A DNA stretch of 64,000 bases from Promethearchaeota archaeon (lineage in GTDB: Archaea; Asgardarchaeota; Lokiarchaeia; Sigyniarchaeales; SOKP01), in assembly GCA_016839705.1 (NCBI GenBank), contig JAEOTR010000041.1:1-64000 (forward strand). Reading direction: 5' to 3'. The position numbers and the translations under genes are program-made. The first letter of the stretch is position 1. Each line of letters opens with the position of its first letter. This document shows, piece by piece, positions 28,544 to 34,969 of the stretch. The notes under the pieces are model-generated. The model worked only from the letters and a program-made list of their open reading frames with translations, ran no database searches and was not told where the DNA came from.

Positions 28544-29691
28544 GAAAAGTTAAAATTGTCAAAAGTAAAGAAAGTAATTACTATATTAAGGGAAGAAGGC
28601 TTCCTAAAGGCTGTAAATTATGCCTAAAAGGTCAAAAAGCTGTCTTATTTTTAAATGGAATTTGTCAAAAACCAAATCATTGCTCTTGGTATTGTCCTAT
28701 CTCAGAAGAAAGAAAAAATAAACATTTAACCTTTGCAAATGAAATAAAAATTAATTCACAGGAAGGATTGTTAGAAGAGGTAAATAAAATCGATGCAAAA
28801 GGAATGAGTATTACTGGTGGGGAACCACTTTCTAAACTGAATCTAATAAAAACTCTTGATTCTATTCAATATATCAAATCACAAAAAGGAAATAAATTCC
28901 ATATACATCTTTACACAAATGGTATCAATTTTGATGAAATAAAGGCAAAAAAACTCGTCTCAGCAGGTTTAGATGAAATTAGGTTTCATCCTGGTAAAGA
29001 AAACTGGGCAACTATTGAATATGCTTTAGATACAGGATTAACAGTTGGTGCAGAAGTTCCAGTTATTCCTAGCAGAGAAAGCTTGAATGTTCTCCGAGAA
29101 TTTATTATTTATCTTGATAAAATCGAAGCAGACTTCATCAATTTAAATGAATTTGAATATTGTTTCCCAAACAGCGAATCCTTAAAAGAGAGGGGATTCT
29201 ATTTACAAAAAGGTTCTATTGCTTCTGTAGTCAATAGTCAGCAAGCTGCTCTTGATCTTATGAAAGATCTGAGTAAGAGTGTTTCTCTTCAAATACATTT
29301 TTGCTCTACAACCGCAAAAGATTCCTTTCAATTAAAAAACAGGTACTTACGAAGAGCTAAAAACATAAAGTTGCCATATGAAGTAATAACTGATGAGGGT
29401 CTTTTAATATTTGCTCAAATAGAAGGGAACAGAGAGGATCTTGAAAAGTTTTATCATTTCACTTTATCAGAAATGAAAATAGATGAAAAATTGGTTGTAT
29501 ATAACGGGGAGAATATAAAGGTACCATTTTATATTTCAATAGATACTCAATTTGTATCATTATTTGAAAGTTTTCAGCTTAAAGGTTATGTAGTAGAAAT
29601 AACACCCTTTAGAGTCTTAAAATATCAACAAATAACAGAAAAAACACCTATAAAATTATTTAAGAAAGAATATGGTTTTGATGAAAATTGA
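28540..29691 (+). CDS. Radical SAM protein (COG2108-like)
   Basis: GCKLC..G.K.VLF, Cys cluster, ITGGEP, HIHLYT and LDEIRFHP. Confidence 0.88.
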   Translation: MRKVKIVKSKESNYYIKGRRLPKGCKLCLKGQKAVLFLNGICQKPNHCSWYCPISEERKNKHLTFANEIKINSQEGLLEEVNKIDAKGMSITGGEPLSKLNLIKTLDSIQYIKSQKGNKFHIHLYTNGINFDEIKAKKLVSAGLDEIRFHPGKENWATIEYALDTGLTVGAEVPVIPSRESLNVLREFIIYLDKIEADFINLNEFEYCFPNSESLKERGFYLQKGSIASVVNSQQAALDLMKDLSKSVSLQIHFCSTTAKDSFQLKNRYLRRAKNIKLPYEVITDEGLLIFAQIEGNREDLEKFYHFTLSEMKIDEKLVVYNGENIKVPFYISIDTQFVSLFESFQLKGYVVEITPFRVLKYQQITEKTPIKLFKKEYGFDEN

Positions 29692-30154
29692 AAACGTAAA
29701 TTCGAAGGATATTAAGCAAATTATAGCCCTTGAACGAGAGATTTTCAAAGAAAATGCATTTTCACAAGAATTAATGGAGAGTTTCTTGCATTTTTCTAAA
29801 AAAGAGAGGAACATATTCTTTCTAAAACTTGGAACAAGTAAAGAAAAAAATAAATTAATTGGTTTTATAATTGTCATCAAGGACAGAATTGATAGGGTAA
29901 ATATTTTGAATTTTCTTATAAATCCTAGATATCAAAATAAAGGATATGGTTCTTTTCTTTTACAAAAAACTATTGAGAAAATAAAACTAATGGAAGAAAT
30001 CAAGAGAGTCGTTTTGAATGTTCAAGTGAGTAATACTATTGCAATTAAGCTTTACGAAAAATTTAATTTTAAAAAAAATCCAAATATTTTGGAGAATTAT
30101 TATCAATCTGGAGAAAGTTCTTATGTTATGGAGCTGACTTTTAAAAGTTTATAA
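29672..30154 (+). CDS. RimI/Ard1-like GNAT N-acetyltransferase (start may be 29681)
   Basis: QNKGYG acetyl-CoA motif, SN..AI.LY.KF.F and YY..GE. Confidence 0.9.
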   Translation: MVLMKIENVNSKDIKQIIALEREIFKENAFSQELMESFLHFSKKERNIFFLKLGTSKEKNKLIGFIIVIKDRIDRVNILNFLINPRYQNKGYGSFLLQKTIEKIKLMEEIKRVVLNVQVSNTIAIKLYEKFNFKKNPNILENYYQSGESSYVMELTFKSL

Positions 30155-30376
30155 TTTTATCTTTTCTCAGCTTTTTCGCTTTATTTTTTCCCTATTTATT
30201 CTCAGCAAATCTTTTACTAAAAACCTCTAAATAAAAAATATTCATCTTAATCTTATCCTTTACGCTATGTTAAAAAGAGTTTTTCTAATAGAATAGACTT
30301 ATAAATAAATTCTATTATACTATCTGTAAATAATAATTAATTCAGATCAATTTTAAACAAAAGGGATTGATAAAAA

Positions 30377-30532
30377 GTGACTCCAGTAGATAAGGAAATG
30401 CAAGAAGAAATTAAGAAAGGTGTCACACTCACAAAAGTTGATGCCGCAGACCTCCAAAAAAGGGAAGAAGAAAAAAAGAAACGTATGGAAGAACTCGAAA
30501 AAGTTAAAGCAGCTTTAGGTCAAAAAGATTAG
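30377..30532 (+). CDS. 51-aa protein with WH2-like motif (absent from ORF track)
   Basis: GTG start; MTPVDKEMQEEIKKGVTLTKVDAADLQKREEEKKKRMEELEKVKAALGQKD; coding-like composition in an AT-rich gap; followed by T-tracts. Confidence 0.75.
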   Translation: MTPVDKEMQEEIKKGVTLTKVDAADLQKREEEKKKRMEELEKVKAALGQKD

Positions 30533-30673
30533 TTTTTTGATAAACAAGTTTTTATTTTATCTTTTTTATTTATTTTATTTTTGTATTTAGTGATTTTGAA
30601 TAAAATTAAGCTTATTTTATACTAAAAATTACTACTAAATAACGAGAATTATTATGGGAGTTAGTCTTAGGAT

Positions 30674-31750
30674 TTGAAAATTCATCACATCAATCAAAAA
30701 CAAAGAGTAATCACAATCACACCTGAAAATCTTAATGATTTATGGACACTTTACAATATAATTAGGGAGGGTGATGAAATCTCTGCTCGTACTCAGCGAA
30801 GAGTTGTGTTGAGAGAGGGGTCTAAGGGTGAAAGAAAAACGATGAGATTGAAATTACGGGCAGAAACTATTTCATTTCATGAGTTTTCAAATCGATTGAG
30901 GGTGAAAGGAAAAATTTTGGAAGGACCAGAAGATTTTGTTAGTTTTGGGACATACCATACATTAAATATTGAACCTTTACAAAAAATCGATATCATCAAA
31001 GAAATGTGGTCTAAGCATGAATTGCGAAGACTAAAGGAAAGTTCCAAATTAGAGTCTAATTTTATTATTTTATTTGTAGCGATTGAAACGGGGCTAGCTA
31101 CTATTGCTACTATAACGAATTTTAGTCATAATAGGATAGCAACTATAAAGAAGCATATACCAGGAAAAAGATACCAAACTTCCTATCGTAATAAGGCACT
31201 AAATGAATTTTATGAGGATATTGGGAAAGTAGTAATAGAAAATTTAAAAGCACTTGAAGTAGATTTAATAATATTATCTGGTCCTGGAAATACAAAAAAT
31301 CATTTTATGGAATATTTAAAAAAAAATCTAAATTCAACTATTAACGTTAAAATTGAGCTTTGTCATGCAAGCTCCGGTACTGAAAGTGCAATAATTGAAA
31401 CATTAAAGTCTAAAGAATTGGCCAATTTAAAAAAAAAAGTGAAAATTTTACAAGAAACTGAAAAAATCGAGAACATTCTTACTCAATTCTCTCTTGATGC
31501 CGATCTAATTCGTATTGGGCTAGAGGAAGTATTTGAAGCTTCTGAACGGGGCGCACTTAAGCAGGTATTAATCGCTGATATTATGATTCGCGGAGTCTCA
31601 AAAGAAAAAAAACTTAAAATTGAAGAAATTATTACAAATGTTGAAAAATCTGGAGGAGAAATTACTATTATGAGTACTGAAAATATTGCTGGAGAACAAT
31701 TGGTGAATTTAGGATCTATTTTGGGGATTTTACGATATAAAAATCAATAG
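30674..31750 (+). CDS. pelA: Pelota/Dom34 ribosome rescue factor
   Basis: DLW.LY, RLRVKG, YHTLN, SGPG and eRF1-like domain 3. Confidence 0.95.
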   Translation: MKIHHINQKQRVITITPENLNDLWTLYNIIREGDEISARTQRRVVLREGSKGERKTMRLKLRAETISFHEFSNRLRVKGKILEGPEDFVSFGTYHTLNIEPLQKIDIIKEMWSKHELRRLKESSKLESNFIILFVAIETGLATIATITNFSHNRIATIKKHIPGKRYQTSYRNKALNEFYEDIGKVVIENLKALEVDLIILSGPGNTKNHFMEYLKKNLNSTINVKIELCHASSGTESAIIETLKSKELANLKKKVKILQETEKIENILTQFSLDADLIRIGLEEVFEASERGALKQVLIADIMIRGVSKEKKLKIEEIITNVEKSGGEITIMSTENIAGEQLVNLGSILGILRYKNQ

Positions 31751-32998: not shown

Positions 32999-34969
32999 AT
33001 GAGCTTCAAATCGAAAGGTCCTAAATCACATCCCAACCACAGTCCTAAAGCTAATCCCGAACCCCCAAAACCCACCCCTGCAAAAGATTCAAAATCACCA
33101 AACCAAAAACCGAACCAAACGCCTAATCAAAACCCTAAACCCAAACCAAATGAAGAAACTAAAAATAATATTAACCCATCTCCACCAGACATTAATAAAG
33201 ATGCAAGAAATACCAACATTAACCTCATTTCTCAACCACATAAAGAATCTAGTAAACCCCTTACGAAATCCCCCCTCGAACCGAATAAGGAATCTAAAAA
33301 TAGAATTACACGACCTAAGTTCAAACCAAATCCAAATAATGGATCTAAAAATATCATTTCACGACTAATATTCGATCCAAATAAAGCATCCCCAAATAAA
33401 AATAAAATAAGAAGACCAAAATTTGGTCCGAATGATGAAGCTAAGAACAAAATAATAAAGTATAAACTTGAGCCAACAGAAAAACCTATAAATAGAATAA
33501 CAATACCAACATTCGATCCACATCAAAAAACTAAAAACAGAATTACACGATCAACATTCGATCCACATCAAAAAACTAATAACAAAATTACACGACCAGC
33601 ATTCAATCCAAATCAAATGGCTAATAATCGAATCACTAAAGCCAAATATTCTCCCATTACGAAAACAAAAAATGAACCTCAAAAACCTTCAATAAAAATA
33701 AATCCATATCAAACTAAAAGTCTGAATTTGGGTAAGAAGAGATATTCAGAAAAAGATGTTAGAAACTGGATAACACATTATAAGAAATGTAGAAATTATA
33801 AGAAAGTACAAAATCAATTACGAAAAAGTGGTCATAAAGTGCCTGCTATTTCAACTCTTAAAAATAGAATCAAGGAATTGATAGGGAAGGAGAAATACAA
33901 GGAACTCATGAAAAAATATACTTTCGATGATGCAATCAAAATTGCATATCAAGTTGGTATAAATAAAACTGGAGTACGTGGAAAAATTTTATCACGTCCT
34001 AATGAATTTAAAGGCGTTAAATCAAAATTATTATACCAATGTGGAAAATGCGACTCTTCACGGAAAACTACTTTAGATGCGATTATAAATAACAAAAGCT
34101 GGTGCCTAAAATGTGTAGCAAAAAGTCGAGTAGGTGCCCAGAGAGGTTCAATAGCAGAACATCAAAATATTATAACTCAAAAAGGTGGTAAATTAAAAGA
34201 AGTGATCTATGAAGATCCGAAAGAAAAACTTTTCAATCAAAGGGCAAGATTCAAAATTGAATGTGAAGCTGGTCATAAGTTTAATATTAATGCCCATAAT
34301 TTGAAACAAGGAAAATGGTGTAGGAAATGTAGTTACGAAGTTATAGGTGAAAAACTAAGAGGATCTTTCCAAGATATTCAAGCGCTTATTGAAAAAAGAG
34401 GTGGGAAATGTCTTTCTAAACCAGAAGACTACCAAAATCAACATGAAAAGTTAAAAATACTCTGTAGTGAAAACCATATATTTGAAAGCGCTCCAACAAA
34501 CTTTATAAGAGGTGATTGGTGTCCTCAATGTTCTCAAGGAAAATTTGAGAGTTTGTCGAGGAAGTTCTTCGAAGAAATTTTTCAAAAAGAATTTCCAAAG
34601 GAACGACCAAATTGGCTAGTAAATGCTCGGGGTAATCAAATGGAATTAGATGGTTATAATAAAGACTTAAAGCTGGCTTTTGAAGCACAAGGAGAACAAC
34701 ATTATCGTGCCGTAGCACACTTTAACCAGACTTTAAAGGATCTCAGACAAAGAAAAGAAGATGATTTGATGAAATTGGATCTATGTAAACAAAATGATGT
34801 TAGATTAATTCAAGTACCATATTATATACCTCCTAGTAAAATGCAACAGTATATAATTAATCAATACGAAAGCTTGTCAAATCAGAAATTACCAGATATT
34901 CCAGACGTAGACTATAATAATTTTTATGATACTAAAGATGATCAAAAAAAGATGGATAATTATTTATAA
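32999..34969 (+). CDS. Repeat-containing protein with tandem zinc ribbons and C-terminal PD-(D/E)xK-type endonuclease domain
   Basis: P/N/K-rich N-terminus; three C..H/..WCxxC modules; ELDGY..LAFEAQGEQH...D..K...C...LIQVPY. Confidence 0.8.
   Translation: MSFKSKGPKSHPNHSPKANPEPPKPTPAKDSKSPNQKPNQTPNQNPKPKPNEETKNNINPSPPDINKDARNTNINLISQPHKESSKPLTKSPLEPNKESKNRITRPKFKPNPNNGSKNIISRLIFDPNKASPNKNKIRRPKFGPNDEAKNKIIKYKLEPTEKPINRITIPTFDPHQKTKNRITRSTFDPHQKTNNKITRPAFNPNQMANNRITKAKYSPITKTKNEPQKPSIKINPYQTKSLNLGKKRYSEKDVRNWITHYKKCRNYKKVQNQLRKSGHKVPAISTLKNRIKELIGKEKYKELMKKYTFDDAIKIAYQVGINKTGVRGKILSRPNEFKGVKSKLLYQCGKCDSSRKTTLDAIINNKSWCLKCVAKSRVGAQRGSIAEHQNIITQKGGKLKEVIYEDPKEKLFNQRARFKIECEAGHKFNINAHNLKQGKWCRKCSYEVIGEKLRGSFQDIQALIEKRGGKCLSKPEDYQNQHEKLKILCSENHIFESAPTNFIRGDWCPQCSQGKFESLSRKFFEEIFQKEFPKERPNWLVNARGNQMELDGYNKDLKLAFEAQGEQHYRAVAHFNQTLKDLRQRKEDDLMKLDLCKQNDVRLIQVPYYIPPSKMQQYIINQYESLSNQKLPDIPDVDYNNFYDTKDDQKKMDNYL
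33296..33655 (+). repeat. About 8 degenerate 15-17-aa coding repeats (NRITRPxFxP)
   Basis: 28-nt identity CAACATTCGATCCACATCAAAAAACTAA at 33507 and 33552 (45-nt period). Confidence 0.85.

Follow-up and report, generated by a model that had tools for sequence, protein, structure and literature searches.

WH2 motifs, gathered in PF02205 from N-WASP, WAVE, WIP, MIM, Spire, Cordon-bleu and VopL/VopF, occupy the cleft between subdomains 1 and 3 of the actin monomer. In Loki-type Asgard archaea, regulation of Lokiactin is held to run mainly through profilins and gelsolins, and the only WH2-like elements described in that account are four-residue motifs in gelsolin linkers (bioRxiv 10.1101/2025.11.30.690169). 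These linkers, from two-domain Asgard gelsolins, carry WH2-like LVDV/LKDV, LRRV and LKHV sequences (PMC9433394; bioRxiv 10.1101/2025.11.30.690169). Trypanosomatid (Leishmania) profilin has a WH2-like helical insertion that binds the actin cleft (PMC10907219), and the C-terminal peptide of Arcadin-2 binds the hydrophobic groove of crenactin, a hot spot for WH2 and thymosin (PMC5173319).

Within the window, by which we mean the whole 64,000-nucleotide stretch of Promethearchaeota archaeon DNA analysed (GCA_016839705.1, contig JAEOTR010000041.1), a small gene encodes a 51-residue protein in which a ~46-residue module of the Loki order stands alone, as a single copy. The module shares with WH2 a helix ending in I-x-x-G and an identical L-x-K-V spacing, and it too occurs both singly and in tandem arrays. 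It differs from WH2 as follows: the second hydrophobic position of the helix is polar instead, there is an obligatory and very conserved charged helix of 25–28 residues that WH2 does without, its distribution is restricted to one archaeal order, and its best member reaches 13.1 bits against the 23.1 bits of the WH2 model. The β-thymosins (PF01290) are likewise free-standing and 44–55 residues long, with an N-terminal helix, an LKKT-like segment and a C-terminal helix. Two residues between helix and motif that are extra relative to WH2 also occur in members of the MK-D1/Lokiarchaeum ossiferum type, and multi-repeat β-thymosins (Ciboulot, tetrathymosin) parallel the multi-repeat versions of the module. 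Unlike β-thymosins, the module ends in a far longer helix with a different charge pattern; HMM and profile–profile comparisons give no significant match, and the module is not found outside the Loki order.

The other systems are more distant. Gelsolin linkers come from the same organisms, where they give an Asgard actin regulator an LKKT-like motif for contact with actin, but they comprise only a four-residue stretch, lack an independent WH2-type helix before it and have no homology to the module family. Trypanosomatid profilin, like certain Asgard fusion proteins described below, unites a profilin fold and a WH2-like element in one polypeptide; the Leishmania element is an internal insertion, whereas the Asgard fusions have one to four C-terminal modules followed by a conserved tail, and the gene in the window is unfused. 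Arcadin-2, from Crenarchaeota, offers by analogy an archaeal peptide on an archaeal actin, as may hold for the module, yet its sequence is unrelated, its phylum and the actin family it serves are other ones, and it forms one segment of a larger protein. We read the gene, with a probability of roughly 55%, as encoding a Loki-order protein that binds actin through one free-standing module, much as WH2 motifs and thymosins do.

Gene structure, conservation and range

The small gene lies on the forward strand between genes for a GNAT N-acetyltransferase and Pelota:

29672..30154, + strand: upstream neighbour, a GNAT N-acetyltransferase (Pfam Acetyltransf_1, E 1.8e-16), separate from the 51-residue gene
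30294..30329, + strand: putative promoter block with a BRE/TATA-like element, a near-invariant upstream block in 27 same-genus orthologues
30299-30307, + strand: BRE/TATA-like element TTATAAATA, ~70 nt 5′ of the start codon
30363..30370, + strand: Shine–Dalgarno-like site GGGATTGA, 7 nt 5′ of the start codon
30377..30532, + strand: coding sequence of the 51-residue microprotein, GTG start and TAG stop (from the ORF list, conservation and dN/dS)
30533..30585, + strand: oligo-T tracts, an archaeal terminator-like region; a T-rich block is also conserved 3′ of the orthologues' stops
30674..31750, + strand: downstream neighbour, Pelota (eRF1 domains 1–3; Pfam eRF1_1/2/3)

A preliminary description of this DNA had proposed a 51-residue frame followed by T-rich tracts. 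The ORF list and the sequence bear out the frame, with a GTG start, and the tracts are present at 30533-30585 and conserved in orthologues. The 30294..30329 block is probably an archaeal promoter, judged from its sequence and conservation. The Shine–Dalgarno-like site reads GGTGTTGA in most orthologues, and the AAAGGTGTT columns are conserved in the same-genus upstream alignment. The 141-nt gap between the small gene and the Pelota gene contains the terminator-like tract. Conserved promoter block, Shine–Dalgarno-like site and oligo-T region together indicate that the 51-residue gene is its own transcription unit; the Pelota gene is a distinct one. Orthologues start with ATG, GTG or TTG at the identical position and conserve residues 2–7, so the long start is the right one. 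The encoded peptide contains I-K-K-G-V-T-L-T-K-V followed by a lysine/glutamate-rich stretch. The source genome (3.36 Mb, 97 contigs, 93% complete) has a G+C content of 31.4%.

A translated search of 60 relatives, a check that the preliminary description had suggested, finds the frame conserved: orthologues are intact in 33 of 36 same-genus genomes (65–84% identity, 50–63 codons), with weaker matches in three other families of the same order. Among 27 same-genus orthologues the median dN/dS is 0.084 (339 pairs; median dN 0.084, dS 0.925), and variable sites number 18, 10 and 42 at codon positions 1, 2 and 3. The 51-residue frame is thus a real gene under strong purifying selection. A set of 5.8 billion proteins holds more than 120 clusters of 44–51 residues, many of them entered under the label 'hypothetical protein' in MAGs of Promethearchaeota or Lokiarchaeota. 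The homologue in Promethearchaeum syntrophicum MK-D1, DSAG12_00453, is deposited under the same label, and the window's own protein is present in a predicted-protein collection. Gene callers therefore do find the gene, and with these entries from NCBI MAGs, P. syntrophicum and the predicted-protein collection two earlier statements fall: that it is unannotated and that it lies below gene-calling thresholds. The small homologue of L. ossiferum, annotated with 69 codons and identified by its mass (8.24 kDa) as GNAMCCOK_02436, was detected by mass spectrometry, both in the proteome sheet and in a co-immunoprecipitation (co-IP; five peptides, 43.5% coverage).

These observations bear on whether the frame could be a chance ORF, or an untranslated feature of an AT-rich intergenic region. 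Such a reading could appeal to its shortness, GTG start and want of a Pfam family, and to the ease with which lysine/glutamate-rich frames arise in a genome of 31.4% G+C. It is opposed by the intact frame in 33 of 36 genomes of the genus and across four families, by a dN/dS of 0.084 with variation at third positions, by the conserved promoter, Shine–Dalgarno-like site and terminator and by the peptides detected for the L. ossiferum homologue. On comparative sequence grounds the conservation pattern has already refuted it, and we assign it a probability close to nil.

To define the range of the family we used a profile built from an alignment of 30 diverse members (A1). This profile recovers the gene from 38 of 40 genomes in its own family and from all three in a sister family, and at E ≤ 1e-4 it has no match in 157 genomes from 25 other families of the phylum. 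For the genomes and profile searched, the gene appears specific to the Loki order. The lack of matches in those 25 families marks the family as lineage-specific, and its likeness to eukaryotic WH2 may be convergent. The order radical-SAM/GNAT/small gene/Pelota/radical-SAM is kept throughout the genus, and GNAT–small gene–Pelota recurs at loci of other families (L038, L040, L041 and L043); MK-D1-type genomes retain the small gene but not the GNAT–Pelota synteny.

Two features of the neighbourhood are recorded here for their own sake. The GNAT acetyltransferase gene lies directly 5′ of the small gene in most genomes. As pure speculation, the 51-residue protein might be a target of acetylation: after removal of Met its N terminus would be Ala or Thr, a typical substrate for N-terminal acetylation, and thymosin β4 is acetylated. 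Further along the window, a 656-residue ORF (32999-34969, + strand) has a long N-terminal low-complexity region with proline/asparagine/lysine-rich repeats, and several CxxC pairs in its C-terminal half.

The three-part module and its other settings

AlphaFold2, run with A1, predicts a helix (residues 6–14), a coil (15–22) and a second helix (23–50), with a mean pLDDT of 82.7:

30392..30418, + strand: residues 6–14, short amphipathic helix (AlphaFold2), aligned to the N-WASP WH2 helix
30419..30442, + strand: residues 15–22 (G-V-T-L-T-K-V-D), non-helical, with an LKKV-like L18-x-K20-V21 (AlphaFold2 coil)
30443..30526, + strand: residues 23–50, long charged helix (AlphaFold2), the most conserved part of the module

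The conserved hydrophobic positions of the first helix, M8 and I12, lie in a register equivalent to that of the WH2 helix. Across four families of the order, I12, L18, K20 and V21 are at least 90% conserved in A1. The same alignment shows E32, R36 and K42 to be invariant within a near-invariant run of the C-terminal helix (E30, E32, K33–K35, R36, E38, E39, L40, K42 and K44). The model agrees with the earlier proposal of a charged helix after the motif, at residues 23–50. This helix has no counterpart in the WH2 Pfam model, and it is common to the GTPase/LRR–RHH proteins and profilin fusions described below. A Foldseek search of the 51-residue model against the PDB gave no match (E > 5).

The module also occurs in tandem, in proteins of ~490 residues with ~10 copies from MK-D1, L. 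ossiferum and relatives. The 41 repeat units retain hydrophobic-x-x-E-I-x-x-G-x-x-L-x-K-I-D and the charged helix. AlphaFold2 renders a ten-repeat protein as ~36-residue helices joined by ~9-residue low-confidence coils with a ~46-residue period, the coils coinciding with the G-x-x-L-x-K-x-D segments. We considered a compact solenoid, which would explain the conserved hydrophobic residues, and rejected it: the ten-repeat model is not compact, with a pTM of 0.17 that is weak evidence against a solenoid, its alignment having only ten rows. The conserved hydrophobic residues thus seem not to be explained by a repeat core. Searching the predicted-protein collection for the exact sequences of the L. 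ossiferum and MK-D1 ten-repeat proteins returned neither.

A second setting is fusion to profilin, with modules C-terminal to the profilin domain: four in P0160, two in P0170 and one each in ORFs at L057 and L062. The N-terminal domains of P0170 (E 2.5e-4) and P0160 (E 1.5e-3) match Pfam Profilin just under threshold and over nearly the full model length, and P0170 also matches the structures of Loki profilin-1, Loki profilin-2 and Odin profilin (5yed, 5zzb and 5zza). All four fusions (L057, L062, P0160 and P0170) end in a conserved tail of ~40 residues with an aromatic-rich motif, which matches no Pfam family. Of separate note among profilins, the commonest homologue of the order has 205–220 residues and corresponds to B35_Pro1 of L. 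ossiferum (L061:1603-2244:+, on the source genome's own contig 76; L049-L060). It bears a strongly conserved C-terminal extension of ~60 residues, with a hydrophobic tail, itself conserved, at the end.

In a third setting, a single module is preceded by either a Ras-like GTPase or an LRR domain and followed by an RHH domain at the C terminus. An LRR–module–RHH gene on contig 27 is the only other module-bearing gene of the source genome; we found no tandem or profilin-fused form there at E ≤ 1, and its 214-residue profilin homologue has no module. An actin-related protein gene lies ~11 kb from the LRR–module–RHH gene (contig 27, 18036-18977 and 29315-30667; L071 and L002), which may be coincidence.

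Sequence comparison with WH2 and β-thymosin

Searching 177,635 PDB sequences with the A1 profile gave as best match the tandem WH2 of N-WASP (3m3n_W, E 0.0048), a significance that is the sum over three repeats with per-domain E values of 16–36. A second N-WASP chain (2vcp_D) ranked third and the WH2 of MIM (2d1k_C) sixth, all aligned in the WH2 register. The window protein has no Pfam WH2 or Thymosin match at E ≤ 10, and a PF02205 scan of the source genome, the check named in the preliminary description, finds nothing at the ORF. Among the 30 family members, one (L039) matches Pfam WH2 at 13.1 bits (E 0.079), below the gathering threshold of 23.1 bits, and none matches PF01290 Thymosin. Pfam matches to NPM1-C, DUF3006 and H-NS_N were discarded as spurious products of low complexity.

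The hhalign probability of A1 is 0.46% against thymosin β4 and below 1% against 42 β-thymosins. In pairwise shuffle tests against thymosin β4 the window protein has p = 0.05, in an out-of-register alignment, and only members of the MK-D1/G044 type align end to end (p = 0.004–0.008). Thymosin clusters (PF01290) lead the named look-alikes in the ESM Atlas, with a score of 0.89 and 171 shared features for the window protein and of 0.85 and 180 shared features for the MK-D1 homologue; both scores lie below 0.9, the level from which the tool counts a likeness as more than a lead.

The layout, as modelled, combines features of both families. A predicted helix precedes a predicted non-helical motif in the WH2-type arrangement M8/I12-x-x-G15-x-x-L18-x-K20-V21, and a free-standing protein of 51 residues with a predicted N-terminal helix, LKKT-type segment and C-terminal helix is of thymosin type. 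The contexts of the module include WH2-type ones, namely ten-fold tandem proteins and fusions to Asgard profilin, along with the GTPase/LRR–RHH proteins. A WH2-type regular expression matches four six-frame ORFs of the source genome, three by chance (TFB, RtcB and a 93-residue frame), so the expression alone is not significant.

Sequence statistics place the protein in neither the WH2 nor the β-thymosin family. What stands of the original WH2/thymosin-like label is the layout and the PDB profile matches; what does not is membership of the Pfam WH2 or Thymosin families, and the hhalign probabilities stay below 1%. Going by its sequence, the protein may work like a WH2 motif or β-thymosin, or at least looks like one.

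WH2-like repeats also turned up in an unexpected place. P0183, a eukaryote-looking protein of 762 residues from a JGI metagenome, has FHA, PP1-binding and two SAP domains and looks nuclear; it carries about a dozen WH2-like repeats (for example, A-I-K-A-G-V-Q-L-K-K-V), matched by the archaeal family profile and, below threshold, by Pfam WH2 (E 0.0021).

Lokiactin as the probable partner

The preliminary description had invoked Asgard actin and profilin, and the source genome does encode Lokiactin, profilin-like proteins and two actin-related proteins. Its Lokiactin (L069:1498-2640:-) has 381 residues and matches eukaryotic actins at E values of about 1e-160. Aligned with eukaryotic actin, the hydrophobic-cleft segments and the acidic N-terminal patch are largely unchanged, with the WH2-contacting residues being those that we take from WH2–actin structures.

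Published co-IP data from L. ossiferum offer a link to this actin. GNAMCCOK_04085 (56.41 kDa) was recovered with Lokiactin in 44 peptides at 70.5% coverage (bioRxiv 10.1101/2025.11.30.690169, Supplementary Table 2). Its log2 actin/IgG ratio of 4.53 (adjusted p 0.0021; same source, sheet 'CoIP Lokiactin') ranks it just above the bait Lokiactin (4.44) and 2DGel1 (3.97), which reports co-purification and is not proof of direct binding. We identify this protein as the ten-repeat form on three grounds: the L. ossiferum ten-repeat ORF has 488 residues and an equal monoisotopic mass (56.41 kDa), interpolation between the two 2DGel genes assigns it the gene index 4085, and a chaperonin of ~58 kDa two genes away matches GNAMCCOK_04087 (57.98 kDa). 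The small homologue GNAMCCOK_02436 was not significantly enriched in the same experiment (log2 0.57, adjusted p 0.105), and two profilins reached log2 values of 1.07 and 0.31 (bioRxiv 10.1101/2025.11.30.690169). The profilin values indicate that weak enrichment is what a low-affinity monomer binder shows in this co-IP. The ten-repeat protein is not taken up in the section where the authors treat regulators of Lokiactin (bioRxiv 10.1101/2025.11.30.690169).

The same dataset shows two further, unexplained proteins enriched with Lokiactin: GNAMCCOK_04250 (20.6 kDa, 91.7% coverage), with a co-IP log2 of 5.11, and the microprotein GNAMCCOK_03085 (4.41 kDa; log2 2.66, adjusted p 4.7e-4), which is also abundant in the proteome. 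We looked for the module in both and it is absent. In L. ossiferum (locus L036) the ten-repeat gene has as its same-strand neighbour a gene for a 586-residue protein with a highly charged start and a double zinc ribbon at its end, and a YggS-like gene and a thermosome subunit gene lie nearby.

The module most likely binds Lokiactin. We infer direct actin binding by the 51-residue protein, together with its binding site and an effect on polymerization, from the WH2/β-thymosin model, which by analogy proposes the following mechanism. The extended L18-x-K20-V21 segment would run up the actin surface, and the long charged helix 23–50 would cover more of the actin protomer or contact a partner. The one-module protein might hold actin monomers or hand them over, its ten-repeat relatives might engage many protomers at once and the profilin fusions would combine two monomer-binding elements.

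Lokiactin could also be bound in another way, along the side of the filament with one module per protomer, as nebulin repeats or other helical side-binders do, and not as a monomer held in the WH2 manner. The 51-residue protein would then be a weak filament-decorating or filament-stabilizing peptide, and its WH2 likeness would be coincidental, a product of combining an amphipathic helix with a basic turn. Filament avidity would fit the recovery of the ten-repeat protein at bait level when the single-module homologue is not so recovered; the modelled ~36-residue helices, repeating every ~46 residues, and a long charged helix as the most conserved part, suit it too. We nevertheless judge side binding improbable, as profilin binds monomers and a fusion to it accords better with the handling of monomers, the WH2 register is matched by the conserved positions and by the distances between them, the profile retrieves chains of WH2–actin complexes and the likewise weak enrichment of profilins makes a low value the expected one for a monomer binder.

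A different possibility is that the partner is not actin at all and the module serves as a general charged helical adaptor or linker, perhaps for a ribosome- or translation-linked factor (as the Pelota neighbourhood might suggest) or for a DNA-binding assembly (as the RHH fusions might), its WH2 likeness being due to chance in a lysine/glutamate-rich peptide and the ten-repeat co-IP result indirect or non-specific. All sequence-based tests of WH2 or thymosin membership are sub-threshold, the WH2-type expression hits TFB and RtcB by chance, and highly charged proteins are frequent pull-down contaminants. Across the genus, and in three further genera from two other families, GNAT, the small gene, Pelota and radical SAM moreover follow one another in this order, but the small gene has its own promoter block and terminator, which speaks against an operon, and MK-D1-type genomes have lost the synteny and kept the gene. 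In the GTPase and LRR proteins the module directly precedes the RHH domain with no evident link to actin; what does point to actin is the fusion to profilin and the enrichment with Lokiactin to the level of the bait, in 44 peptides (adjusted p 0.0021). The HMM profile, Pfam on one member and language-model features converge, too, on WH2/thymosin and on no other family. We therefore think a non-actin adaptor unlikely. A TMA7-like or translation-factor identity, prompted by the Pelota neighbour and the lysine/glutamate-rich tail, was set aside, as it has no Pfam support and the small gene is a separate transcription unit; it survives only as a version of the adaptor.

WH2/thymosin-like binding of Lokiactin thus stays our preferred reading and, though unproven, the 51-residue protein is a good candidate for an actin regulator of archaea that has not been described before. 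The literature searched yielded no account of an Asgard protein that is free-standing and WH2/thymosin-like, and a search for DSAG12_00453 returned nothing. The proposal is readily testable, with a peptide that can be synthesized and homologues in two organisms in culture, P. syntrophicum (DSAG12_00453) and L. ossiferum (GNAMCCOK_02436 and GNAMCCOK_04085). If it is true, a free-standing WH2/thymosin-like peptide, along with its ten-repeat and profilin-fused forms, would add a layer to the archaeal actin system and would bear directly on how much of the eukaryotic actin toolkit predates eukaryotes. It seems to us very doubtful that the module is a surviving archaeal relative of the eukaryotic WH2/β-thymosin motif, this class of element having arisen, in its single, tandem and profilin-linked forms, in Asgard archaea before eukaryotes. 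Were it such a relative, it would join profilin and gelsolin as a third class of actin regulators in Asgard archaea.
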